A program made the translations under genes and the position numbers. 41,426 bases of DNA. It comes from a virus. Lineage: Duplodnaviria; Heunggongvirae; Uroviricota; Caudoviricetes. Under the pieces are notes generated by a model. It did not search any database, had not been told where the DNA came from, and saw only the letters and a list, made by a program, of their open reading frames with translations. Shown here one piece after another: positions 2,326 through 39,577 of the stretch (the stretch's first letter is position 1; every line of letters begins with the position of its first letter). The stretch is taken from IMG/VR virus record IMGVR_UViG_2711768022_000004; one strand, given 5' to 3'.

Positions 2326-3063
2326 TCATTCACTCTCTTTCAAACCAGTTTTAACTGTTTGTGGTTTTGGGTAAGGCTGGACTTTGAATAGCTTTGTGTT
2401 AAGGCGTTTTCTGGCTCTCTTGTCCAGAAACCGGATGTAACGAAACTGACGGAATTTATGAACACTGGCTCTGTCGATATTAGCCCGCAGATGTTCACCT
2501 CGCTGTCCTCCTCGTTTGATTGCATTCTTGCAAATCTCGTGATACCACTCGCCATCAAGTTCATAGAATGTTGTTTCATGACTGCCTACATAATCAAAAT
2601 TGCTTGCCTGGTACACGACACCAAGACAGCCACAACGCTCATCTGCAAACGACTGAACCCACTGCACCTGCGGATAAAGTTGTCTGATTAGTTTGAGCGC
2701 GTAACTGATTGCCCTTGATTCGGAGTTTCTCGGCATACAGTCATGCAGCCATAACCGGTTAAGCTCCATATATTCGCGGTTCTGCGTGCCAGTTACGACG
2801 CGTGCACCATTGTTTGGATTAAGGGCATAACCCCATTGCATTACGCCAACCAGCTCCCGTTCTGAAAATATGCCCAGATGAAGGTAGGAATTATTTACGA
2901 AACGATGGCTGTAATGTTTATTGACGACGACCAGCCGGGCCAGCCAGCAACTTATTGTCTCAACCCGTAACTCACGGGAGCCATAACCGACGATATTGTC
3001 GTTATAGTGAATAAGTTCAGGCGTGCTGATGATACGGGATGTAACTTGCTTTCTGTTCCCCAC
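2326..3063 (-). CDS. mom: Mom-like DNA modification protein (start uncertain; GTG at 3063 assumed, frame open to 3258)
   Basis: Immediately downstream of and overlapping a Com-like zinc-finger ORF at the prophage right end, as in Mu; about 245 aa if started at GTG 3061-3063. Confidence 0.6.
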
Positions 3064-3217
3064 GACAGGATTTCCTTGTGTATGTGGGGTGCTCTGTGGC
3101 GCTCTGAGATGTGATTTGATTGAGGGTTTTACAGCGCGGACATTTAACTTCCAGATAACTGAAGCTGGCTCGTGCCAGTAGCTTGTTACAATGTCGGCAC
3201 CGTATGTTTCGATACAT
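3017..3217 (-). CDS. com: Com-like zinc-finger translational activator of mom
   Basis: [35 protein letters not shown] has the C-x2-C...C-x2-C pattern and resembles Mu Com (IRCKNCNKLL...RCPRCK); AGGAGG Shine-Dalgarno upstream of ATG 3215-3217. Confidence 0.7.
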
Positions 3218-3260
3218 GGCCGCATAACCTCCTGCTTTGTTGTTGATATCTTTATCACTC

Positions 3261-3350
3261 AATCGATCGACAAAAACGATCGATTTGATTTATTTAATTG
3301 ATACAACAAATAACACGAAATGTCATTAGCGAAAATTTATGAGTTTGATC
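3261..3350 (-). promoter_or_regulatory. candidate mom-operon promoter/regulatory region with GATC cluster
   Basis: Perfect 9-bp inverted repeat AATCGATCG(N7)CGATCGATT at 3261-3285 carrying two GATC sites (3265, 3278), third GATC at 3347; lies 45-130 nt upstream of com start. Confidence 0.35.
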
Positions 3351-3473
3351 ACTAATTTTAAACGGTGCTGTAACGCATAAGTGCTGAATGATTGTACATT
3401 TGAATACCGCAAAGCAAACAAATCAACTAATTTATAGAAGTCAATTGGTTAATTGCCAGCGTAAGAGGCTGCT

Positions 3474-3767
3474 ATGGACAATCATGTAACGACGAGAAAT
3501 CGAAAAATGATTGAAAATGCGGAAATCTATAATGATTATTTTTCCGATTATTCAGATGCCTGCAAATACAGTTCGAGTGCGGGAGAGTTCATATGCTTCA
3601 ACTTTTTTATTAAATCTTATGTTTTTCCTCCACAGCAAGAAGATGGAGGTGTGCCACCTCCTGAAATCACTTTGCACCGTATAGCCTCCGTCTCAATGAT
3701 GGAGCAACAGGCTAATGAGCTGTATAGCATTCTGGGAACGATTCTACAAAAGCGTGAATCGGACTAA
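3474..3767 (+). CDS. hypothetical protein (cargo gene, opposite strand to the operon)
   Basis: 97-aa ORF with AAGAGG Shine-Dalgarno; embedded in AT-rich DNA between com and the esterase-like gene. Confidence 0.45.
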   Translation: MDNHVTTRNRKMIENAEIYNDYFSDYSDACKYSSSAGEFICFNFFIKSYVFPPQQEDGGVPPPEITLHRIASVSMMEQQANELYSILGTILQKRESD

Positions 3768-3934
3768 TGATACCGGTTCATTTGCCTGCCCGGATGGGGA
3801 AGCAGGATTGACTGCTCCATAAGCAGCTATATTTCTGAATACGAAATACTATCCAGCGATTACATATGGCTGGATAGCGGCAAAGATGTTTTCATTAGTG
3901 TCAAACCGGCAGAGGACACCACCGGTTTGTATTG

Positions 3935-4189
3935 TTACATCATGGTACTGTCAGTTCCGGGCTGAGCCGGGTCTGGTTGCTCTGGCTGCGCGTCGGTTTT
4001 CGGCTCATTATCAGCATCACTGGCCGCAACTGCTGGCCCAATAAGTTTTGCCAGCACTTCATCAACGTAAGTGTCGATTTGTGCCTCAAAATCCTTGCGG
4101 ACCTGCGCTTTCAGCAACTTATTTACTTCACCGGAATACAGTGCCTGTTTTACCAGGTCTTCAGTGACGGTGCCTTTAATTTCTGGCAT
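3935..4189 (-). CDS. hypothetical small protein with acidic Pro/Gln-rich C-terminus
   Basis: 84-aa ORF with strong GGAGG Shine-Dalgarno (reverse complement of 4195-4199). Confidence 0.5.
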   Translation of the reverse strand: MPEIKGTVTEDLVKQALYSGEVNKLLKAQVRKDFEAQIDTYVDEVLAKLIGPAVAASDADNEPKTDAQPEQPDPAQPGTDSTMM

Positions 4190-4224
4190 GTATATCCTCC
4201 TTATGCGGGAATAAAGCCCTGCAA

Positions 4225-4407
4225 TCAGGGCTGGGTCGGGTCTTTTGGGAGCGGAGTTACCTGCGCTGTTTTACTGAGTTTTTCAGCTGCTGCGTCCTCA
4301 ATTTTGCGGCGAACATAATTTCTGATGGCCTTATAACCACCACTCACCAGATATAACGCACATACTGCCGTGCAGAAATACAATAAAATAAGCTGTAAAA
4401 ATGTCAT
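4225..4407 (-). CDS. small membrane protein (single predicted transmembrane helix followed by a charged tail)
   Basis: 60 aa from ATG 4405-4407: MTFLQLILLYFCTAVCALYLVSGGYKAIRNYVRRKIEDAAAEKL; GGGAGGG Shine-Dalgarno upstream. Confidence 0.5.
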   Translation of the reverse strand: MTFLQLILLYFCTAVCALYLVSGGYKAIRNYVRRKIEDAAAEKLSKTAQVTPLPKDPTQP

Positions 4408-4422
4408 TATCCCTCCCAATTA

Positions 4423-4449
4423 TTGACATGGTGTTGACACCGGTAATAT
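4423..4449 (+). promoter_or_regulatory. candidate sigma70-like promoter on the plus strand
   Basis: TTGACA at 4423-4428 (second TTGACA at 4434-4439) and TAATAT at 4444-4449; spacing 15 bp, suboptimal. Confidence 0.3.
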
Positions 4450-4503
4450 CTGTTAGGTAAAAAGGTGCACTGCATTTTTTGCTTTGGATATAACGATCTT
4501 TTT

Positions 4504-4544
4504 GCCGCCGGTTTCTTGTTTTCCCTTACCGGCGGCATTTTTTT
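4504..4544 (+). terminator. rho-independent terminator (plus-strand orientation)
   Basis: 9-bp GC-rich stem GCCGCCGGT / ACCGGCGGC around a 15-nt loop, followed by T7 run at 4538-4544. Confidence 0.6.
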
Positions 4545-4551
4545 ATCCTGC

Positions 4552-6606
4552 TTACGCGTTATTCACTTCCACCACGATACTGTCAATCAGTACCGGGTAA
4601 GTCGCATTTTTAGTGATATCGGTCACGCGCAACTTGTCTGCCGTAAACGTGCCGACCGGAGACTGCGACAGCATGAATGGTGTCCCGTCCTTACCATCAA
4701 TGACCGGCGTCACCTCAATACTGTTGTTACCGGCAAAACGGAAGCCCAGCGTATGCCATTCGTTATTAAATGCGCCGAATGACCCCAGCTTCGTGTTCTG
4801 CGCCGTGTTTCCTTTGTGATACATCACGTTAAGGTCTGTGGCATCGCTCTGTACGTAGAACGATGCCAGCAGGTTATGACCGGCATTTCCTTCCAGAGTA
4901 ACCCCTTGCGGCAGGGCAGAAACCGGCCAGTACAGCGCCAGTGCGTACTGATTAGCCGTAAGCGCGCCATCGAGTTTAAAACGACAACTGACAAGACCAC
5001 CTTTACCCAGCAGGTCCGCACCATTACCAGCATCATGCTCAAGGTACCAGGGGGCTCTTCCTGTTTCCTTGGTCAGTTTCATTGCCTTACCCCCGCTGGC
5101 TCCGGCATCATCCACGATTTGAGCCTTGCCACCTCCGGCAGCCCAACCCTGTGGTGTCAACCGTCCTTCAGACTCAGATGCCCGGTAAGCAAATAGCGTA
5201 CTCATCGTCGTGGTGTCTGCGGGTGGCGTGGACGGTTTTGATGGTGTATCAGGTGACGGCTTCTCATCCGGTGGTGTCACGGTCTGCCCACGCATCAGTT
5301 CAGCCGTGCGCCCTGCATGGAGCATAATAGCTGAGGCCAGACGGTCTGAAATGACGCCCCTGCGTGCCCATGAGCTGAAATGGCTGTCACGCTGTGTCGA
5401 AACAAAACTGCCCTGGGTTCGGGATGCTGCACCGTAATACCCGACAGCCACAATATCCGGGTCTTCCGCCGGAGCATTCGTTGGCGTGCTCTGTCCATTC
5501 TCATCCGTCAGGAACGGTACAAAGAAAATTTTCTGTGCTTCCTTGCCTTTGTAGCCACCGTATACTGCCTCATATTTATCGGTGCCAGCGTTTTTCCAGT
5601 AATACGTGGTATCACCGCAAATCCACGGCACCGTGGTGGCATTTCCACTCACGCACTGCGCAGCAAGCGGAGCCAGGTCAGTTCTGAACTGCTGAACCAT
5701 GGCCGTGAATAAACTATTATGCTGCTGGCTTCCTGAGGCAAGGTCTGCCTCTCCCTGCATCCAGACCACAGCCAGAAGTTTGTTTTTCGGGTTTTTCGCC
5801 AGCGCGACTTTGGTGCGGCTTACCAGGTCCTGATACAGAGGTTTACCGGCCCCCCAGCGTGAAGAATCAGCGGAAGCACCGCTGGCCTCACTGAATGAGC
5901 CGTCGGCTCCAGTGGTGAATGCTGACCCGCCACGACAACAGGGCACCAGAAGTATCCCGGCATTCTGTGGGATATAGGGAAGCAGTTTTTTGGCAATATG
6001 CAACCCCTGACCGACAGTCCCGTACTGGCCTTTTGCCAGATCAGCTTTCGGGTGGTTTATCCCGCTCATATCCTGAACATCATGCAGGCAGTGGTCTGCC
6101 GGAATGATGTCGTTGTATGTACACGACGTACCGTTGGGCGTTACCGTACTGCGGCGTGCCAGTTGCTTAATGCGTGGGTCCGGGCGGTCAAACGAATCCG
6201 GTAACGGCAGCCCCTCGCCGTAGGCCATGCCATTTGACTGACCCGCGAGAATGACAACAAAGTAATATTCCGGCTCTGAACTGCTGCCATTCGTGCTACC
6301 GGAAGGCCCGGCGTTATCCGGTGCATTCCAGTCGGAGGGCGTGAGCGTTCCGGCCACGTCAGATGTGATTGGAATGATGCCAGTCACGCCTGAACTGGTG
6401 ATTTCTGCACTGGGATTACCGGATACCGGCATTACCCATAATGGCTCTTTCGTGCTGAAGCGGATCACGCAGTCTGCGAAGGTGATCCCCCCTTTATTAC
6501 CCGAAGGGCGGAAAGGGCTTTCAATAAATGCCACCGTGCCACCGGCAACCTTGACTGAAAACTCTCCGGGCATGGCGGAGAGCATTTTCCACTTGGAGTC
6601 TGACAT
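4552..6606 (-). CDS. SASA/SGNH-type carbohydrate esterase-like protein (sialate O-acetylesterase-like), prophage cargo
   Basis: 684 aa; VVILAGQSNGMAYGEG resembles the GQSNM motif of sialate O-acetylesterase-type domains; no obvious signal peptide; sits between invertase and com-mom. Confidence 0.55.
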   Translation of the reverse strand: MSDSKWKMLSAMPGEFSVKVAGGTVAFIESPFRPSGNKGGITFADCVIRFSTKEPLWVMPVSGNPSAEITSSGVTGIIPITSDVAGTLTPSDWNAPDNAGPSGSTNGSSSEPEYYFVVILAGQSNGMAYGEGLPLPDSFDRPDPRIKQLARRSTVTPNGTSCTYNDIIPADHCLHDVQDMSGINHPKADLAKGQYGTVGQGLHIAKKLLPYIPQNAGILLVPCCRGGSAFTTGADGSFSEASGASADSSRWGAGKPLYQDLVSRTKVALAKNPKNKLLAVVWMQGEADLASGSQQHNSLFTAMVQQFRTDLAPLAAQCVSGNATTVPWICGDTTYYWKNAGTDKYEAVYGGYKGKEAQKIFFVPFLTDENGQSTPTNAPAEDPDIVAVGYYGAASRTQGSFVSTQRDSHFSSWARRGVISDRLASAIMLHAGRTAELMRGQTVTPPDEKPSPDTPSKPSTPPADTTTMSTLFAYRASESEGRLTPQGWAAGGGKAQIVDDAGASGGKAMKLTKETGRAPWYLEHDAGNGADLLGKGGLVSCRFKLDGALTANQYALALYWPVSALPQGVTLEGNAGHNLLASFYVQSDATDLNVMYHKGNTAQNTKLGSFGAFNNEWHTLGFRFAGNNSIEVTPVIDGKDGTPFMLSQSPVGTFTADKLRVTDITKNATYPVLIDSIVVEVNNA

Positions 6607-6682
6607 CGTCTTTTCTGCCTGTTTCTGAATTAAACAGAGTCAGAATAGCGACCGCTGAAAAATATGTGTTTTGCGGAAATTC

Positions 6683-6711
6683 AAAAAAGCGTCACGGTAC
6701 TTTTGGTGACG
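6683..6711 (-). terminator. rho-independent terminator overlapping the invertase stop codon
   Basis: On the minus strand, stem CGTCAC / GTGACG with 10-nt loop followed by CTTTTTT; invertase stop codon lies inside the stem. Confidence 0.5.
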
Positions 6712-7258
6712 GAGCTGGTGAGGCAGGAAAATAACGATAAAGGGTGGAAAGGCCAATATCAAATATCAGTGCGATTTGTTTACGGGACTCGCCATTAGCC
6801 AGCAAACGGGCGATTTGCTCCCGCTCTTTCTCTGTCAGTTTCTGAGGTCTGCCGCCATGACGCCCCTGAGCACGGGCAGCAGCAAGACCCGCGCGTGTAC
6901 GTTCAATAATGAGTTCCCGCTCCATTTCCGCCAGCGCGCCCATTATATGGAAAAAGAAACGTCCCATGGGAGTGGATGTATCAATATTGTCCGTAATGCT
7001 GCGGAAGTTAACGCCGCGTTGCCGGAGTTCTTCTGTTAAAAGGACAAGGTGCTGCATACTGCGTCCAAGGCGATCCAGTTTCCAGACCAGCAGGGTATCC
7101 CCTGGCCGGAGTCGCTTTAATGCGCGTTTAAGTCCGGGACGCTCCCTTGTCTTACCGCTTATTCTGTCTTCGAAAAACAGCTCACATCCTGCACATTCCA
7201 GCGCATTTCTTTGTAGCGCCGTATTCTGGTCATTTGTTGACACCCTGATATACCCAAT
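6692..7258 (-). CDS. gin: serine DNA invertase (Gin/Pin/Cin/Hin family), 5' end runs into the assembly gap
   Basis: Translation IGYIRVSTNDQNTALQRNAL...GDTLLVWKLDRLGRSMQHL...PMGRFFFHIMGALAEMERELIIERT is near-identical in pattern to Gin; frame continues upstream of the listed GTG start into the N-run. Confidence 0.85.
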   Translation of the reverse strand: MGYIRVSTNDQNTALQRNALECAGCELFFEDRISGKTRERPGLKRALKRLRPGDTLLVWKLDRLGRSMQHLVLLTEELRQRGVNFRSITDNIDTSTPMGRFFFHIMGALAEMERELIIERTRAGLAAARAQGRHGGRPQKLTEKEREQIARLLANGESRKQIALIFDIGLSTLYRYFPASPAPSPKVP

Positions 7259-7488
7259 NNNNNNNNNNNNNNNNNNNNNNNNNNNNNNNNNNNNNNNNNN
7301 NNNNNNNNNNNNNNNNNNNNNNNNNNNNNNNNNNNNNNNNNNNNNNNNNNNNNNNNNNNNNNNNNNNNNNNNNNNNNNNNNNNNNNNNNNNNNNNNNNNN
7401 NNNNNNNNNNNNNNNNNNNNNNNNNNNNNNNNNNNNNNNNNNNNNNNNNNNNNNNNNNNNNNNNNNNNNNNNNNNNNNNNNNNNNNNN
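7259..7488. other. assembly gap (run of 230 N); true length unknown
   Basis: Literal N characters in the sequence. Confidence 0.99.
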
Positions 7489-20478: not shown

Positions 20479-21426
20479 TTACAGATAATCCGCGACAACC
20501 AGCTCCAGCTTGCCCTTCATCTCGTTAGAGACTGTGGCGTTACCGTCTGCGAACAGCTCGCGCTCCAGCAGCTGCACCGCCTGTTTTTCCAGCGAGGTGG
20601 GGACAACAATATGGGTGGGTTTGATGCCGAGTTTGCGGCCACCGTCAGCCTTAAAGTCACGCATGGCTGACCAGCCGTGCCACAGCGCATCCAGCGTCAG
20701 CGGTGACTGCATCATGTAGGCCATCTGCCAGAAGCCGTAGCCCACATTGCGACGGGCGGAAGCACCGAACACAAACTCGTTATCAGTAAACGCACGGCCT
20801 TCATCGACTTTTGTCTGGGCAACCAGTTCGGCTTTGCGGCGATCCTGATAAATCAGCGGTTTTACCGCGCGGGAGCAGTCAAGCAGATACCAGGCCGGGC
20901 CGCTGTAATCCGCCTGTGCACCGACAGAGCCGGTTTTTGCCACAAACATATTGCTGACCATCTGTGCATCACCGGAGCCATCCACTTTGGGGTAAACAGG
21001 GTGTTCGGTATCAAAGAAGTTCTGGCCGTCATAGCAGGCCGCATTCAGACCATCACGCAGTGCAGCAAAGACCAGTTCATCCGGTTGTGCCGCAGCGGCA
21101 CGACCCATTTCCTGGAATAACGGGGAGTAGATGCCGAGATTGTCGTCTTCAAAGTCATCGCGGCTAATGGCAACGGTGCCTTCAAAGGTTTTGTTCACGA
21201 TGGCGTAGCCATAGGCTTTCATCTTCTCGATGACGCGGGAGCCGATCCACTCACGGAACTGCGGGAACTGCCCCAGCCAGCCGTAGGTGTTGGATTTCGA
21301 GGTGGACGGCACGGTCATCGCAATTTTCTGGTACTGCGACGGAGCCATGGACATCCCGGCCTGAAAATCAGAACGGTAGCCCGTCATCAGGGCGGTGATC
21401 ATCGCCGGTGTAATCGGGGTAGGCAT
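20479..21426 (-). CDS. major capsid protein (Mu T-like)
   Basis: 315 aa; follows protease/scaffold gene. Confidence 0.75.
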   Translation of the reverse strand: MPTPITPAMITALMTGYRSDFQAGMSMAPSQYQKIAMTVPSTSKSNTYGWLGQFPQFREWIGSRVIEKMKAYGYAIVNKTFEGTVAISRDDFEDDNLGIYSPLFQEMGRAAAAQPDELVFAALRDGLNAACYDGQNFFDTEHPVYPKVDGSGDAQMVSNMFVAKTGSVGAQADYSGPAWYLLDCSRAVKPLIYQDRRKAELVAQTKVDEGRAFTDNEFVFGASARRNVGYGFWQMAYMMQSPLTLDALWHGWSAMRDFKADGGRKLGIKPTHIVVPTSLEKQAVQLLERELFADGNATVSNEMKGKLELVVADYL

Positions 21427-22559
21427 TATTGCATTTCCTCTTTCATTTTCAGGAACTCGGCTTCGGTTTTACCCAACAGACGTGCGGCGGCGATATCTTC
21501 AGCCGACAGCACAGCGGTGGCGGTCTTTTTATCCGGCACGGTTACGGTGTCGGTCTGAAGAGTGGTCAGAGCCGCAACCGGCTGGCGGGCGTCAAGCTGT
21601 GCAGAAAGTGCCGCGACGCCAATCTGTTGTCCGAGTCCTTCCATGTATCCGCGTTCGCTTTTGAAAATGCGTCCTTCGGACTCGGCCTTATCCAGCAACT
21701 GCTCCAGCGTGGTGCTGCCGTGTTGTGCCGACAGCGCGGCATATTCGGTACGCAGGGCGTTATACGTCTCAACGGGCACATATTTCGTCAGATCAATAGT
21801 GCCGCCAGTTGGTGTGCCTTTTGCGGTTTCCAGTTCTGCCGACAGGCTGGCAACCTGCGTTTTCAGGGTGTCGTGCGCATCCGCACGGGTTTTGATCCCG
21901 GTAAGGGCAGACAGCGCCGCCGTGCCCAGTTCCGGTGTAAATTCGTCACCGTCAGCCACGGTCAGACCGAGCGCCGTCAGCAACTGGCGTAATTGCTCAT
22001 TCATGGGGGATTGCTCCTGAGAAGGGGAAACGACATAGAGATCATCAGCACTGAGTGCCGCGACAGGGTTCATACCCGTAATACCCGGATCATTCGTCAG
22101 GGAAGCCATGCGCAACAGGTAGGGTTCCCCGGTGTCAGCGAAATAATGCATATATGCAGACAGATAGGCATATTCACGGTCATCAATATGTTTTTGTGCC
22201 TGTGGTGTCCATTCAGGTTTAATGAAAATCCCCTGACCCTCACGCCATTCGATGTTTTCCGGCTTAACCCATCCTGCAGCAATAGCCTTGAATCCGTTTT
22301 TCTGCGCATTCACGGAGTGATGGTCATAATCAATCAGTAACGGCTGATGCAGGGCGGAAAGCCCGGCTTTCATCCGGTTACAGGCGGATTCGTTAATCAG
22401 CCAGCCTTCAGTCGGTTTTTCCGGGCGACCGTCACGGGCCTTTACCCGACCGGCTGGCAGTAACTGACACCATCCGTCGCCGGATGCAGTCAGCGAAGCT
22501 GAAAGCACGGCTAAACCGGAGGGGCGATTTGCGTCTTTTGGGTGATTTTCTGTCTTCAT
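21426..22559 (-). CDS. head maturation protease/scaffold protein (Mu I-like)
   Basis: 377 aa; Ala/Leu-rich coiled-coil C-terminal half typical of scaffold domains. Confidence 0.65.
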   Translation of the reverse strand: MKTENHPKDANRPSGLAVLSASLTASGDGWCQLLPAGRVKARDGRPEKPTEGWLINESACNRMKAGLSALHQPLLIDYDHHSVNAQKNGFKAIAAGWVKPENIEWREGQGIFIKPEWTPQAQKHIDDREYAYLSAYMHYFADTGEPYLLRMASLTNDPGITGMNPVAALSADDLYVVSPSQEQSPMNEQLRQLLTALGLTVADGDEFTPELGTAALSALTGIKTRADAHDTLKTQVASLSAELETAKGTPTGGTIDLTKYVPVETYNALRTEYAALSAQHGSTTLEQLLDKAESEGRIFKSERGYMEGLGQQIGVAALSAQLDARQPVAALTTLQTDTVTVPDKKTATAVLSAEDIAAARLLGKTEAEFLKMKEEMQ

Positions 22560-22736
22560 ACCGGCAGCATAAGCCGGGTATTTTTGGGGCTGGTTTTGCG
22601 GGACTTCAGAAAGTGCTGACAGGGGGGGAATGAGAAAGGCGCTTCACGCAGATTTTAAAGCCCGTTAAATACAGGTTAGAAAATCACGACACGCGCCTGA
22701 AGGGGGTAAGGTAATACGTTTGCATACCTTAAACCA

Positions 22737-29927: not shown

Positions 29928-30258
29928 TCGTGGCCGCCTTGCTGATTTGTGAAATGAGTTGCAGGGTGCGTTGCTGGTTTGCCAGCACCAGACGGGCTTC
30001 GTCCCGTTCACGCACAAGCACATGATTATTGTCCTCAAGGCGCTGCGTCTTCTGGTGCATTCCCCATACCACGGCAGCCAGCACGCTCATCACCCCCAGC
30101 GCCGCCATACAGCCTCCGGCAATCAGGGCCGGTAAGGGATTGTTCACCGCAGACACAGCACACCCCGCAGCAGCACAACGGCACACAGCAGCGCAATCAT
30201 GAGCGGTCGCCAGAAGCGGTTCAGACTTTCGGCAAATCGTAACGACATAACCATTCAT
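29758..30258 (-). CDS. i-spanin-like inner-membrane protein (start uncertain)
   Basis: N-terminal hydrophobic helix (LIAGGCMAALGVMSVLAAVVWG) followed by Gln/Arg-rich coiled-coil; overlaps endolysin 3' end. Confidence 0.5.
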   Translation of the reverse strand: MNGYVVTICRKSEPLLATAHDCAAVCRCAAAGCAVSAVNNPLPALIAGGCMAALGVMSVLAAVVWGMHQKTQRLEDNNHVLVRERDEARLVLANQQRTLQLISQISKAATNEKQQNMQHSEEQQSIVRRSLATVPAAAVPVPDDVADRVRRAVCEIRAGEAGADPR

Positions 30259-30721
30259 CCGCCGAACGGCGGGCCTCAAGACCGGGGAGTTTTACCCCCT
30301 TTGAATAAATCCAGCGGATATACTGCTTACAGGACGCGGGCATCTGCCCGGCATTGATAAGGCGCAGGAGCGTGGAGTTGCGAAAGTTCGTTTCACCGGC
30401 CCAGAAAATCCAGGAGGCCAGCGCCACCGTCTGACCACGGGTAAGCGGCACCTGAACATGACGATCGATAGCCGCAAAGGCCCATTTCATGTCCTTTTCC
30501 AGCAGCTCCAGACACTCTTCATCAGTTTTTGTCATCCCCGGTTTCACATCCGGGCCGGTATGGCCGTAACAGATGGTGGGGGTGCCGGTGGGATCAATGT
30601 ACGTGGTGTTTTCTTTCCCTTCCCAGTAGCCGGTGTAGTGCGTGGCAATGGTGAACGTCCCGGCTCCGGCCAGAACAAGGGCAATCAGCTTTTTACGCAG
30701 GGGTGCGGGGAGTTTTGGCAT
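30221..30721 (-). CDS. endolysin, T4-lysozyme type with N-terminal signal-anchor-release (SAR)-like segment
   Basis: Catalytic spacing E-8-D-5-T in YWEGKENTTYIDPTGTPT; Gly/Ala-rich hydrophobic N-terminus LIALVLAGAGTFTIATHY. Confidence 0.75.
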   Translation of the reverse strand: MPKLPAPLRKKLIALVLAGAGTFTIATHYTGYWEGKENTTYIDPTGTPTICYGHTGPDVKPGMTKTDEECLELLEKDMKWAFAAIDRHVQVPLTRGQTVALASWIFWAGETNFRNSTLLRLINAGQMPASCKQYIRWIYSKGVKLPGLEARRSADEWLCRYDLPKV

Positions 30722-30760: not shown

Positions 30761-30792
30761 CGTGAGGAAAAGGGGGCAGGATTTGCGGAATA

Positions 30793-31215
30793 TCAGAAAA
30801 GCCGTGGCTGCGTGCGTTCCTGATGCAGGCGACGCTGGTTGCGGATAACGGAGTAAATCTGCGTCTCTGACATCTGGTAGTGGCGGCGCAGGGTTTCAAT
30901 TTTTTCGCCCTGGCTCCAGCGGGAAAAAATTTCATTATTGCGCAGTTCGGTGAAAAGGGATTCACCGACCGGGAGATAATAACCACGCCCGCCCATGTAC
31001 CCGGCCTGTGCGGCTGCAACCTTACGGGCAAGCATTCCCGCCTGAGCAGGTTCAATCCCCTGACGGTGCAGTTCAGCACTGATCACATCAACCAGGTCCC
31101 GCAGCGTGCCGGGCCAGTTCTTTTTCAGCTCATCATCAGGAATATCATCCAGACGGTCAATCAGCGCGTGCAGCTGTTCGCTGTCACCAAACATGCTCAT
31201 CTGTGTTTCAGCCAT
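30793..31215 (-). CDS. mor: Mor/C-family transcriptional activator
   Basis: 140 aa; N-terminus MAETQMSMFGDSEQLHALIDRL resembles Mu Mor (MTEDLFGD...); directly after gemA-like gene. Confidence 0.65.
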   Translation of the reverse strand: MAETQMSMFGDSEQLHALIDRLDDIPDDELKKNWPGTLRDLVDVISAELHRQGIEPAQAGMLARKVAAAQAGYMGGRGYYLPVGESLFTELRNNEIFSRWSQGEKIETLRRHYQMSETQIYSVIRNQRRLHQERTQPRLF

Positions 31216-35431: not shown

Positions 35432-35704
35432 TTACCCCTGTTGATTAAATTCATTACCGTTAATAACCCCGGAAGCCATGCCTCTGTCTTTCATGAATGC
35501 ACTGGCTTTCATTGCCACAAACTCTGCGAAGTTTCTGCTTTCTGCCAGCATAACCACCCCAAAAATCATGGCGGGTCCATTATCTTTCTTCTTTATTCCG
35601 GTTGAACGTATATCCAGACTTACCCCTCTGTGCGTGCTGCCATCAGAGTTTTTGCAGATAACATCTTCCTTGTATTCGAAAATAATGCGTACGACTTTAC
35701 TCAT
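35432..35704 (-). CDS. hypothetical small protein, paralogue A of a tandem pair
   Basis: MSKVVRIIFEYKEDVICKNSDGSTHRG...; AT-rich. Confidence 0.45.
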   Translation of the reverse strand: MSKVVRIIFEYKEDVICKNSDGSTHRGVSLDIRSTGIKKKDNGPAMIFGVVMLAESRNFAEFVAMKASAFMKDRGMASGVINGNEFNQQG

Positions 35705-35982
35705 CCTCTGGTCCTCGTTCTGTTTGGATAACTGACCCGGCGTCTAACCTCACGGCAGAACCGAATCATGGCATTAAAGGCTTCTTCCTCCGTCACCGCT
35801 TCCGGTATCCCCGGAACCAGTAACTGCTCCTGTTCATCACGTCCATGACGCGCCATAACCTCAATCACATGCCGTACCGTGGCAGGCTTTCCGGCAACTA
35901 TCGGCAATGCACCTTCCGGCAGGACGTAACCAAACTCAATAAGACCACTCGACCACGCCCATGCAATGAGATTTTTTTTCAC
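35701..35982 (-). CDS. hypothetical early-region protein
   Basis: 93-aa ORF. Confidence 0.4.
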   Translation of the reverse strand: MKKNLIAWAWSSGLIEFGYVLPEGALPIVAGKPATVRHVIEVMARHGRDEQEQLLVPGIPEAVTEEEAFNAMIRFCREVRRRVSYPNRTRTRG

Positions 35983-36250: not shown

Positions 36251-36478
36251 TTAGCTGACTTGTTTCGCACCAACAGAACGGCATATTCCGCTGTAAACTT
36301 CTGTCGCACCTTCGCGATCAAGTCCGGCAGATATCACCATTCGTGTGCGGTCATTAAATTCAAAAAGTAAATCGCCACATTCTTTATTTTCGGCCAGTGA
36401 AATCACCTTCACGTTATCGAAATTAACCAGGTAAAAGCGTCCGTAAATATCAGGAATATTAAATACCGCCATAATCAC
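36251..36478 (-). CDS. hypothetical early-region protein
   Basis: 75-aa ORF overlapping the B-like gene end by 4 nt. Confidence 0.4.
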   Translation of the reverse strand: MIMAVFNIPDIYGRFYLVNFDNVKVISLAENKECGDLLFEFNDRTRMVISAGLDREGATEVYSGICRSVGAKQVS

Positions 36479-37416
36479 ACCTGTGAGAGTAATTCAGGGT
36501 TGGTATAAACCTCTTTAAAGGCCGCATTAATATGTTTTTCTGTCAGCGCCGCGCCTTCACCGCTGGCGGTGAGCCACGCCTGGTTAAGCGTATGTGTCAG
36601 AACGCGTAACGCTCCCGGCTTTTCAGCGATAGCCTGCATGACGGCCAGCTCGGCCTCACCACTGATCCCCCACGCCATGGCAATGGCCAGCACATCCGCC
36701 TTTTTGGCCTTGCGAAGTTGTTTTGTACGGGCAAGACGGCTGAACAGGCGCGATAAATCATCAAAGGCGCGGCGTCCACCTTTAAACAATCCGCGCGGGT
36801 TACCAATAAGCACCATCCCGATCCCCGTGGCGTCCTGAATTGCCCGGAGTTGCTCCAGACCGTCAATACCAAGATGATCCGCCTCATCCACAATCACCAG
36901 TCCACGCGTTCCCATCAGGCGACGGCGGATGGCGCGGGATAATGCCCCTTTGTTCGCGCGGGTGTAATCAATCCCCAGCGCATCGGCCAGCTCCAGCAGA
37001 CACTCCGTGACGCTGGAGTGCGCGGGTGACAGGGTGATCATCCAGGTGTTTGGTTGCTCCTGGCAGTAATTACGGGCAGTGGCCGTTTTACCCACACCCG
37101 GTACGCCCACAATAACGTTAATACAGCCCATCAGGCGAACCGCCTGAAACAGTGCGCGCAGCTCCTGGACTGTCTGAGTTTCCACAAACTGCGGCGGTTC
37201 CGGCAGTGCGCTTTGTTTATTCCAGTTCTCATACCAGGAGCGCAGGGAAGCAGCCACAGCAGCGTTATCGCCTTTATATTTTCCCTTACGGAAAGCCGAT
37301 AATGTGCCGTCGGAAATTCCCGCCTCTCTGGCGATGGCATACTGCGTCAGTACGCCGCCATCAATAAGTTCATCAATGGTCTTGATTACATCGTTAATAT
37401 CGGTCATATTATTCAC
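36475..37416 (-). CDS. MuB-like AAA+ ATPase (transposition target-DNA activator)
   Basis: 313 aa; Walker A GVPGVGKT; N-terminal HTH-like region; directly downstream of transposase. Confidence 0.8.
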   Translation of the reverse strand: MNNMTDINDVIKTIDELIDGGVLTQYAIAREAGISDGTLSAFRKGKYKGDNAAVAASLRSWYENWNKQSALPEPPQFVETQTVQELRALFQAVRLMGCINVIVGVPGVGKTATARNYCQEQPNTWMITLSPAHSSVTECLLELADALGIDYTRANKGALSRAIRRRLMGTRGLVIVDEADHLGIDGLEQLRAIQDATGIGMVLIGNPRGLFKGGRRAFDDLSRLFSRLARTKQLRKAKKADVLAIAMAWGISGEAELAVMQAIAEKPGALRVLTHTLNQAWLTASGEGAALTEKHINAAFKEVYTNPELLSQV

Positions 37417-37489: not shown

Positions 37490-39577
37490 TCAGGCCAGCG
37501 GATCACTTTCTTTTAATTTCGCTTCGAGCAGTTGCAATCCCCGCTGGAAATTACGCTCGTATTCTTCATCAGGTTCATCGTCAGCGACCGGTTGCTGAAC
37601 GGTCACCGTATTACCCACAGGGCGGTATATGTTTTCCAGCCAGGGCTCCTGCGGCTTGTGCTCCAGCACGTTGACAACCTCATCCTCGGCATCACGGATT
37701 TTTTCCTCTGCGCGTTTACGCATGCCTTTAAGGCGCTGCTGCTGTTTGTAGTATTCCGCGCTGACAGGGAAGGCTTCGCGTTTATTGCCGTCCCATACCG
37801 CCTCGCAAATCACGCTGCCATCCGGGCGGCGCACGGTAATTCGTTCGGCATCATGAATGTCATAGCTGATAAGTACCTTACGGCCATGCTCGTCACGCAG
37901 CTCGGGCGCGTAGTAAATATTATTCAGCCAGCGTATTTCACAGCGTCTTACAGGGCGCTCCACCATCGGCCGGAACATATCCCGCAGTTCAACATCGGAC
38001 AGCCATTCAATTTCCGTGTCCTCTTCCGCCAGGCGTTTTTTTCTGAACTCCGCCGGGCTGTAATGTTTACCGTTCGGCTTCATGGGTAATTCATCGTGCG
38101 GCCGGTTGTTGTACCACTCAACACCGTCACGAATGGCATCAATCAGTTCAGACCAGGACGGTAAATCACGCATCGCTGACTGCTGCCGGGCGTTCAGCCG
38201 TTTGCCCTGTTGCAGGGCACTGAATGCCGAGCGTAAATCGCGGTTGGTTTTACGTAACGTCTCGCGATCTGCTCCTTTCCCGAAATAGGTGCGGTATTTA
38301 CGGGCTATGCGCATCGGTAATGTGCGGTTAAGCCGTTCGATAATGCCCCGTCCCTGCGGATTACCGGCAATCCCTGTCGGGTGATTAATCCCCAGTCGTG
38401 GCAGTATCCCCACAATCTCCTTATCCAGGACGTCGGCGGTTTCCCCGGAGCCATTATCCGAGTAATACAGAAACGGTTTGCCATGATGGCGAATACCGTG
38501 CTGTATGGCACCGGCTACGGCGAAAACATTTTCAGCCAGGTCAAGGCTCCAGCCCACCACAAAGCGCGTGCCACCGTCGATAACAAAGGTCACTTCCGGT
38601 GCGAATGGCCGCCCGTGAACCGGGTGCGCGCATTTCAGCTTCATGCCGTGACCGTCACCAATCCAGACATAATTCACCGGCATTCTGGACCAGTCGCGGC
38701 GCGTGAATCCCTCAAGCTGACGGTATTCACTGCCAGTTACCCGGCCTTTTTGTTTCACCACTTCCGGCAGTTTCTTCATTGCGCGGCGAATGGTGTCATA
38801 AGAGGGCATGATATCGAGCATATAAGGCTCATCAGCGTGCCGGTGCTGCCATTCAGCAACAAAATCCTCGTAAGCCTCGGTCATTGGTCGGCCGTTTGAC
38901 TGGCGATACTGCGCCAGAAATTCGGGCAGCCAGTTAATATCTTCGGCTTTTATTTCCTGGCGTTTACCCGGTGCCAGTAAAAGCAGGCGTTCAGCGGCGT
39001 TCTGTGCCTTGTTAAAGGCCGCAATCCAGCGTTTCAGCGTGATTTCACTCAACGCGCGGCTGTTTCCCTTTTTGGCGTTCGCCGTCTCAACCATTGCCAC
39101 AATGCGCTCGTCCAGTTGTGATCGTGCCAGGCTGTTAACGAGGAACCGGATAGCTTTAGCGCAGCTGAAACCGGGTTGTTGCGTGAATTTCAGCACCTCA
39201 CTGACGATCGCAATGCGTGCGTCTGCCACCTGGCGCTGGTTTTCAGTCAGGGCATTGAGGCGTTCGACCATCAGTTGTGGTGATCCGCGATATGCCTCCA
39301 CCGCATCAACCACGGCAGACGAGCGTCTGGCCTTTGTCACCACCGGAGCCGGTGATTCATCGGCTTTTTGCGTCATCAGTTGCAGGGCATAACGTTCGCG
39401 TAATGCCTGCTGTGTCACTTCAGGTAAACAGTCAATGCTGTATTCAAAACCTTTAGCGCCTTTCTTGCGGCGTCTGCTGGTTTCGCTGGTTGCATACTTC
39501 CTGATTGAATAGCGAACGCCTTGCTCCGTTCCCGGCATCCCCGGTAATCCAACCAGTTCTTTAACTGAAGCAAACAT
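37490..39577 (-). CDS. MuA-like DDE transposase
   Basis: 695 aa; between ner-like and B-like genes; N-terminus MFASVKELVGLPGMPGTEQGVRYSIRKYA parallels MuA N-terminal DNA-binding domain. Confidence 0.8.
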   Translation of the reverse strand: MFASVKELVGLPGMPGTEQGVRYSIRKYATSETSRRRKKGAKGFEYSIDCLPEVTQQALRERYALQLMTQKADESPAPVVTKARRSSAVVDAVEAYRGSPQLMVERLNALTENQRQVADARIAIVSEVLKFTQQPGFSCAKAIRFLVNSLARSQLDERIVAMVETANAKKGNSRALSEITLKRWIAAFNKAQNAAERLLLLAPGKRQEIKAEDINWLPEFLAQYRQSNGRPMTEAYEDFVAEWQHRHADEPYMLDIMPSYDTIRRAMKKLPEVVKQKGRVTGSEYRQLEGFTRRDWSRMPVNYVWIGDGHGMKLKCAHPVHGRPFAPEVTFVIDGGTRFVVGWSLDLAENVFAVAGAIQHGIRHHGKPFLYYSDNGSGETADVLDKEIVGILPRLGINHPTGIAGNPQGRGIIERLNRTLPMRIARKYRTYFGKGADRETLRKTNRDLRSAFSALQQGKRLNARQQSAMRDLPSWSELIDAIRDGVEWYNNRPHDELPMKPNGKHYSPAEFRKKRLAEEDTEIEWLSDVELRDMFRPMVERPVRRCEIRWLNNIYYAPELRDEHGRKVLISYDIHDAERITVRRPDGSVICEAVWDGNKREAFPVSAEYYKQQQRLKGMRKRAEEKIRDAEDEVVNVLEHKPQEPWLENIYRPVGNTVTVQQPVADDEPDEEYERNFQRGLQLLEAKLKESDPLA

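Follow-up and report, generated by a model that had tools for sequence, protein, structure and literature searches.

Prophage-encoded sialate 9-O-acetylesterases of the NanS-p type are thought to help pathogenic Escherichia coli exploit the O-acetylated sialic acids of gut mucus. In lambdoid phages, late expression of nanS-p is driven from pR', and open reading frames (ORFs) for DUF826 and DUF1378 proteins sit between nanS-p and S (PMC10462455). The DUF1737 domain of these proteins, composed of a helix and three strands, forms in phi24B a capsid-bound hexamer of gp84 (NanS-p) (bioRxiv 10.64898/2026.04.10.717836). In phage Mu, the invertase gene gin ends at 35673, Pmom occupies 35693-35759 and com starts at 35768, leaving a gin-com gap of 94 bp. 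Here we describe a NanS-p-like esterase and its accompanying genes, which a Mu-like prophage carries between its invertase and com-mom genes in the IMG/VR virus record IMGVR_UViG_2711768022_000004, a stretch of 41,426 nucleotides that is called the window below. The region in question (3261-6690) separates the invertase from com-mom by about 3.4 kb with four ORFs inside and, because gin and com are adjacent in Mu, it is extra relative to Mu. This surplus was recognised in an earlier interpretation made from the letters alone (the sequence-only reading), and the invertase, esterase, small ORFs, plus-strand ORF and com-mom all lie where it had placed them. Taken as a whole, the locus is probably best explained as a late NanS-p-like module which is fixed in a Mu-like lineage and whose enzyme would be released at lysis and act on mucin sialic acids.

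Family membership and distribution of the esterase

The 684-aa product of the ORF at 4552-6606 (minus strand, stop codon 4552-4554) contains a GQSN motif and, as judged by profile and structure matches, is by family a NanS-p-type sialate O-acetylesterase; among characterised proteins it is closest to the NanS-p sialate 9-O-acetylesterases of prophages. Its SASA/SGNH catalytic domain (residues 112-430; 5317-6273, minus strand) matches the Pfam family SASA (PF03629) with E 1.5e-13 and 51.3 bits against a cutoff of 24.8, while residues 110-428 align in phmmer over 319 residues with the E. coli NanS/YjhS structure PDB 3pt5 (E 1.8e-117), a 9-O-acetyl-N-acetylneuraminic acid esterase. The nucleophile Ser124 in GQSN and His409 in RDSH (block IV) align with Ser19/His301 of NanS and Ser87/His373 of the 933W protein. 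The lectin-like jelly-roll domain at the C-terminus (residues 469-684; 4555-5202, minus strand) corresponds to DUF6645 (PF20350, E 7e-68), and its residues 469-683 match the structure of the NanS-p C-terminal domain PDB 6yp6 (E 7e-98). The aromatic residues Y510, Y515, Y540 and F611 of phi24B NanS-p were proposed to bind carbohydrate (PMC10462455), and all four are kept in the 684-aa protein as Y554, Y559, Y584 and F654. A match to PHROG 143 begins at residue 71, and identity across residues 94-683 amounts to 65% with 933W L0105 and to 87-91% with the E. coli NanS-p proteins of the DUF1737 type. An N-terminal hydrophobic signal sequence is absent. The SASA/SGNH-type esterase proposed in the sequence-only reading is therefore supported by the profile search of 4552-6606 (Pfam SASA match, catalytic Ser and His conserved), although the DUF1737 domain that it had suggested gave no match up to E 10.

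The 65-90% identity to the family members suggests the 9-O-acetyl group of Neu5,9Ac2 as the substrate. A different target was also considered: the enzyme could de-O-acetylate a bacterial receptor (O-antigen, K1 capsule or similar) and in this way aid adsorption or block superinfection. SGNH esterases do occur in some phage tail proteins, the 684-aa protein matches PHROG 25867 "tail protein" (E 1.2e-6) and an Arthrobacter minor tail protein (29% identity), and its gene adjoins the tail-fibre/invertase region. Nevertheless, we regard this possibility as highly improbable, since identity to lambdoid NanS-p copies is 88-92% in the catalytic and lectin domains, with the NanS-type blocks and the aromatics of the sialic-acid site retained, a PADLOC match is lacking and no features of a trimeric tailspike were seen. 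Receptor modification, which had been raised in the sequence-only reading, thus gained no specific support. A defence-system function was rejected as well: none of the four proteins of the region has a meaningful match in PADLOC, the best one being that of the DUF826 protein (E 0.0076, 12.9 bits).

The distribution of the region was assessed by a census of complete E. coli genomes, which is based on counts and not on a per-genome list. A probe with com-mom joined directly to the invertase matched 238 genomes, and in none of them were its two halves adjacent. The com-mom of the window type (coverage at least 80%) was found in about 226 genomes, and the N-terminal coding segment of the esterase occurs in two types: type A, to which the window belongs (28-32 genomes), and type B, or O157-type (205 genomes). 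Essentially every prophage of the window lineage carries the module, because the counts of types A and B together agree with that of com-mom. Types A and B share only about 68% DNA identity over the invertase and esterase with gene order unchanged, which argues that the arrangement is old. Ser124 and His409 are invariant across the type A, type B and E. coli CI5 copies. In CI5 (locus L004, 7433-7740) only the last ~60 bases of the invertase survive as a 3' remnant, and the spacer and esterase module are kept. The region is lacking in the Mu/D108 lineage only: in these prophages (mom ~72% identical) invertase or tail-fibre genes directly adjoin com.

The module is thus a fixed component of one E. 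coli/Shigella Mu-like prophage lineage (Sp18-like). One could suppose instead a sporadic cargo island, recently inserted into the window prophage and variable among close relatives, as the absence of the region from Mu and Mu/D108-type prophages and the variation of the AT-rich slot at 3327-3905 would suggest. This is very unlikely given the invertase next to com in 0 of 238 genomes, the N-domain types in 28 + 205 genomes against 226 with the com-mom type, and the common gene order of types that diverged to ~68% identity across the esterase. The sequence-only reading, which had proposed a cargo island, itself named presence in all close relatives as the finding that would speak against one, and this part of it is largely refuted.

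The Mu-type esterase N-terminal segment is present as many as 3-4 times in some genomes, and in two cases it was found on a plasmid; multiple and plasmid copies are consistent with active transposition of Mu-like prophages.

A new N-terminal domain and a shared payload

The most distinctive part of the protein is its N-terminus. Residues 1-95 (6322-6606, minus strand) form an all-beta domain, which occupies the place of DUF1737 and is followed by a flexible linker rich in Ser, Gly and Pro (residues 96-111; 6274-6321, minus strand). The DUF1737 profile (PF08410) found nothing in the esterase even at E 10, residues 1-95 gave nothing up to E 10 against all Pfam profiles, and no alignable similarity to the DUF1737 N-termini was detected. 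In tblastn against 50,697 phage records the domain had two matches only, both in Stx-phage records at a feature named "inserted Bacteriophage Mu-like phage". HMMER, run exhaustively on 1.84 billion representatives, returned fragments of the same protein and one distant relative (P0126, 30% identity), in which the domain runs on into an APEYYFV..AGQSN esterase; its source is a divergent non-E. coli Mu-like prophage, where it follows baseplate, tail-fibre and invertase genes. A word-indexed homolog search yielded fragments only, no paralog of the domain was found elsewhere in the window, and fold searches with it were uninformative. In the AlphaFold2 model, the domain has six strands within residues 5-80 and is all-beta (pLDDT 70-85), while pLDDT below 50 at residues 83-110 indicates a disordered linker. 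To the extent that sequence searches can tell, this ~95-aa domain is novel, unrelated to DUF1737 and found just in Mu-like prophages.

In a divergent non-E. coli prophage (L014, 7426-7910), two small ORFs lie between the invertase and the esterase with this N-domain; one encodes 58 aa and has a hydrophobic helix at the C-terminus, the other encodes 87 aa, and the contig ends within the esterase.

The identities of individual domains revealed a mosaic. For the N-terminal domain, types A and B are ~59-60% identical, and the lambdoid L010 and 933W-type proteins, which have DUF1737 there, cannot be aligned. For the catalytic domain, identity is 70% between types A and B, 88% between type A and lambdoid L010, and 80-82% between type B and the 933W type; the respective values for the C-terminal domain are 73%, 92.5% and 79%. 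A DNA block common to the window and L010 (88.4% identical in blastn) runs from 6276 to 4349, that is, from the linker/catalytic boundary to inside the DUF1378 gene. These domain-wise identities and the block that starts at the linker indicate, at the level of sequence comparison, that the catalytic and lectin payload was exchanged between Mu-like and lambdoid phages by recombination from the linker, while the N-domain stayed with the Mu-like backbone.

Retention of the N-domain alone is no proof of selection, because homologous recombination cannot replace a segment which has no homolog. Selection is evident instead from the comparison with strain CI5, in which dN/dS of the N-domain is 0.04 (21 synonymous and 3 non-synonymous differences), whereas the catalytic domain has 0.09, the C-terminal domain 0.12 and the linker 0.81. 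The N-domain is under strong purifying selection and is the most constrained part of the protein.

What such a domain may do is suggested by phi24B. By analogy, it could anchor the esterase to the Mu-like virion, on capsid hexons or on the tail, for binding or processing of mucus. The DUF1737 domain of phi24B gp84 is a capsid-decorating hexamer (bioRxiv 10.64898/2026.04.10.717836), and the beta-domain sits at the same position before a flexible linker. Furthermore, this replacement domain occurs only in Mu-like prophages, including the divergent non-E. coli one, its dN/dS of 0.04 is the lowest in the protein, and the gene has an apparent late promoter (see below), like structural genes. However, copies of the DUF1737 type are present also in a P2-like myovirus, so an anchor need not be specific to a morphotype, and retention of the N-domain is expected from the missing homology alone; display on the virion is therefore conceivable but doubtful. 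In the same tentative manner, one can suggest that NanS-p is a modular combination of an anchor and a mucin-deacetylase payload, the payloads being shuffled across unrelated morphotypes, each of which keeps its own anchor, and that the N-domain would be an anchor unrelated in fold to DUF1737. If this is true, E. coli Mu-like myoviruses display a sialic-acid esterase on their particles. The Mu-like copies make it possible to test directly if virion anchors are exchanged by swapping the N-terminal domain.

The payload extends beyond the esterase. Downstream on the minus strand there are genes for a small membrane protein of 60 aa with one N-terminal hydrophobic helix (DUF1378; 4225-4407; Pfam E 1.2e-31, PHROG 494) and for a small acidic protein of 84 aa (DUF826; 3935-4189; Pfam E 6.4e-16, PHROG 311). 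The Stx phage Stx2_95 has the order stx2AB, nanS-p, 60-aa ORF, 90-aa ORF and holin. A non-Stx lambdoid prophage, the one whose DUF1737-type homolog is closest, runs from Q-like and methylase genes through DUF1737-SASA-DUF6645, DUF1378 and DUF826 to holin and lysozyme. In the Mu-like prophage, a copy of this nanS-p/DUF1378/DUF826 trio is present without a holin, and the lysis genes are ~24 kb away. By this synteny, the esterase, DUF1378 and DUF826 genes are recognised as a three-gene, probably late module common to the lambdoid (including Stx) late operon. That the DUF1378 and DUF826 genes are kept far from any holin suggests a role with the esterase and not in lysis.

Just past the esterase stop codon, at 4504-4544 and within the 88%-identical block shared with L010, there is a GC-rich hairpin with a 10-bp stem (about -25 kcal/mol, z = -4 on both strands). 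Its T7 run is on the plus (antisense) strand only; the hairpin would stop plus-strand transcription entering the esterase gene and not sense transcription. Another hairpin (3902-3929; -18.7 kcal/mol and z = -2.7 on the minus strand, -16.9 kcal/mol and z = -1.8 on the plus strand) lies between the convergent DUF826 gene and plus-strand ORF. The sole TTAT-N6-ATAA palindrome of the window (TTATGCGGGAATAA) is at 4201-4214, past the DUF1378 gene and 12 nt short of the start codon of DUF826. It resembles the C-binding site of Mu Pmom; as a promoter element, this candidate was rejected because it is not above chance and is too near the start codon.

Expression and proposed action of the module

The spacer between the invertase and esterase (6607-6691, minus strand) contains a putative C-type late promoter, which consists of the motif TTTTGAATTTCCGCAAA (6670-6686), 22 nt and TATTCT (6642-6647). 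Both esterase types share the block CTGAATTnnCGCAAAA in front of the gene, although the surrounding DNA is just ~68% identical. When it was searched in the window, a near-identical copy was found 36 nt upstream of the gene for the homolog of the Mu I protease (I; 21426-22559), and another just upstream of the lysozyme gene (lys; 30221-30721). The refined pattern TTYTGANNTYCCGCAAA matches the minus strand exactly at 6670-6686, 22595-22611 and 30782-30798. In the window, CCGCAAA followed after 21-24 nt by TAYNCT is confined to these three sites (lys, I and esterase; observed spacing 22-23 nt). The lys and I sites are the positional equivalents of the Mu C-dependent Plys and PI, and a CCCGCA core is common to the Mu Plys and PI sequences. 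In an independent prophage of type B (L016), the motif is present with 0 mismatches at the Plys position, 1 at the PI position and 3 upstream of the esterase. Two diverged prophages thus have the motif with its spaced -10 element in front of lys, I and the esterase gene, from which we infer a separate late promoter for the module, under the control of the Mor/C-family activator (30793-31215). Late expression of the window esterase would parallel that of the pR'-driven lambdoid nanS-p.

The sequence-only reading had placed a terminator of its own after the invertase. The hairpin found there (~6683-6712; 6-bp stem, 10-nt loop and T6 run; -7.4 kcal/mol, z = -0.64) folds no more stably than shuffled sequence, runs into the end of the invertase gene and was not listed by the terminator scan; the spacer appears to hold a late-promoter-like element instead. 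This observation bears on another possibility, namely that the esterase is a fitness factor made in the prophage state by read-through from the constitutive invertase gene and helps the lysogen directly. It is favoured by the weak hairpin, by the location of both genes on the same strand 85 nt apart and by the published status of NanS-p as a growth-advantage factor (PMC10462455). On the other hand, a cytoplasmic enzyme without a signal peptide needs lysis or export to meet its substrate, the spacer carries the late-promoter-like element, and CI5 has lost the invertase yet keeps the spacer and esterase. Altogether, direct benefit to the lysogen seems unlikely.

We therefore return to a late module acting after lysis, for which the following sequence of events may be proposed. 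Upon induction, the late activator would switch on the esterase along with the head, tail and lysis genes, and the esterase would be present in induced cells only. The cytoplasmic enzyme would be set free at lysis into gut mucus, either free or attached to virions. There Ser124/His409 would take the 9-O-acetyl off Neu5,9Ac2 on mucin-type glycans with the lectin domain guiding, and surviving lysogens could use the freed sugars via the nan pathway.

Several points weigh against this scheme. The 3-mismatch copy upstream of the type B esterase is by itself not above chance, and the motif pattern was refined after three copies had been seen, which makes its statistics partly circular. No copy of the late motif was found at PP or Pmom, and a scan for sigma-70 promoters gave 4 sites against 3.0 expected, which is not above background. 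The weakness of the intergenic hairpin makes read-through from the invertase gene possible. Finally, the closest biochemically tested enzymes are just ~65-70% identical to the window protein.

Boundaries of the region, the host prophage and comparison with known systems

Between the DUF826 gene and com there is an AT-rich slot (3327-3905), which from the alignments is the sole truly variable part of the region. Types A and B have no DNA homology in it, and both flanks align. In the window it holds an orphan ORF on the plus strand (from 3474 or 3507 to 3767; 97 or 86 aa), around which GC is 35-40% against ~55% in the esterase gene, while the slot of type B (O157-type) contains a different, frameshifted ORF (L003, 4138-4595). 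The window ORF was found in E. coli and Shigella only; it matched nothing in Pfam, PHROG, PADLOC or NCBIfam, and its AF2 model (pLDDT 50.7) was too poor for a fold search. A suspected likeness to DUF3467 was not confirmed. The position between DUF826 and com looks like a moron slot.

The left boundary of the region is the com-mom regulatory region (3218-3326, minus strand), which aligns with the GATC cluster of Mu Pmom and carries a GATC pair at 3265-3281; from 3326 leftward, types A and B are 91.6% identical. Within 3218-3300, the CGATCG (GATC) pair is kept as in Mu Pmom, and com starts ~35 nt closer to it than in Mu. The C-site TTATGCCCCAATAA of Mu is missing from the com-mom control region of the window. 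Because of this shorter GATC-com distance and the missing C-site, mom regulation may be wired differently in the window lineage.

Within the window lies a complete Mu-like prophage, encoded on the minus strand. Among its genes are those for transposase A (37490-39577), transposase B (36475-37416), a GemA homolog and the major head protein gpT (20479-21426); further on in the late region come genes for baseplate and tail, an invertible tail-fibre segment, the Gin-type invertase, com (3017-3217) and mom (2326-3063). The Gin-type serine invertase (6692-7264, minus strand; Pfam Resolvase E 1.5e-46 and HTH_7) forms the right flank of the 3.4-kb region and is labelled in RefSeq as a recombinase family protein in locus L001. 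Owing to an N-run at 7259-7488, 230 bases on the border of the invertible tail-fibre segment are masked, among them the first codons of the invertase including the start and part of the neighbouring tail-fibre reading frame.

The transposon-like right end of the prophage is at 2191-2198, where matches in other E. coli genomes begin and beyond which the host genes differ. The sequence left of this end (423-2191) is not core chromosome: on its minus strand are encoded a "prophage tail fibre N-terminal" protein (423-1595) and, at 1649-2107, the C-terminal portion of a transposase of the IS66 family. On these grounds, the Mu-like element seems to have transposed into an IS66 copy within another, lambdoid prophage.

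Compared with Mu and D108, the window prophage has the same Gin-type invertase, Com, Mom, GATC cluster upstream of com and overall genome organisation, the difference being that the 94 bp between gin and com in Mu are replaced in the window lineage by 3.4 kb with four genes. The putative promoter of the module may be akin to the Mu-type C-dependent late promoters, to judge by its motif separated by 22-23 nt from TAYNCT and by the CCCGCA core in common with Mu Plys and PI, a tentative likeness seen in silico with a post hoc pattern. The chromosomal E. coli NanS (YjhS, 3pt5) has the same catalytic domain with the equivalents Ser19/His301, but it is a single-domain protein of ~326 aa that belongs to the nan regulon and is devoid of the N-terminal and C-terminal lectin domains.

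A literature search for Mu-like copies of nanS or sialate O-acetylesterase genes found no paper describing them. In RefSeq the esterase appears as a "DUF6645 domain-containing protein" or "sialate O-acetylesterase", and NanS-p-like esterase would be a suitable name for such "DUF6645 domain-containing" proteins. With this payload fixed in a transposable Mu-like prophage lineage, in over 200 complete genomes, the NanS-p family extends beyond lambdoid phages.

The closest known counterpart is the lambdoid NanS-p, represented by 933W L0105 and phi24B gp84/vb_24B_21. The window protein shares with it the SASA/SGNH domain, the catalytic Ser/His, the block variants, the lectin-like DUF6645 C-domain with its aromatic site, the DUF1378 and DUF826 genes that follow, the lack of a signal peptide and, apparently, its status as a late gene. 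The differences are that the capsid-binding DUF1737 domain there corresponds to an unrelated all-beta domain here; the host is a lambdoid phage there and a transposable Mu-like myovirus here; the lambdoid gene is placed between stx/Q and the holin gene S, whereas the window module is between the invertase and com-mom; and expression depends on pR'/Q antitermination in the former but apparently on a Mor/C-type late promoter in the latter. Having the catalytic and C-terminal features of NanS-p without DUF1737 or the lambdoid location, the window esterase is most aptly called a variant of NanS-p, set apart by a new N-terminal module and by new genomic and regulatory surroundings. The enzyme family itself is already known; what is new in comparison with its lambdoid members is the N-terminal domain, the Mu-like context and the apparent own late promoter.

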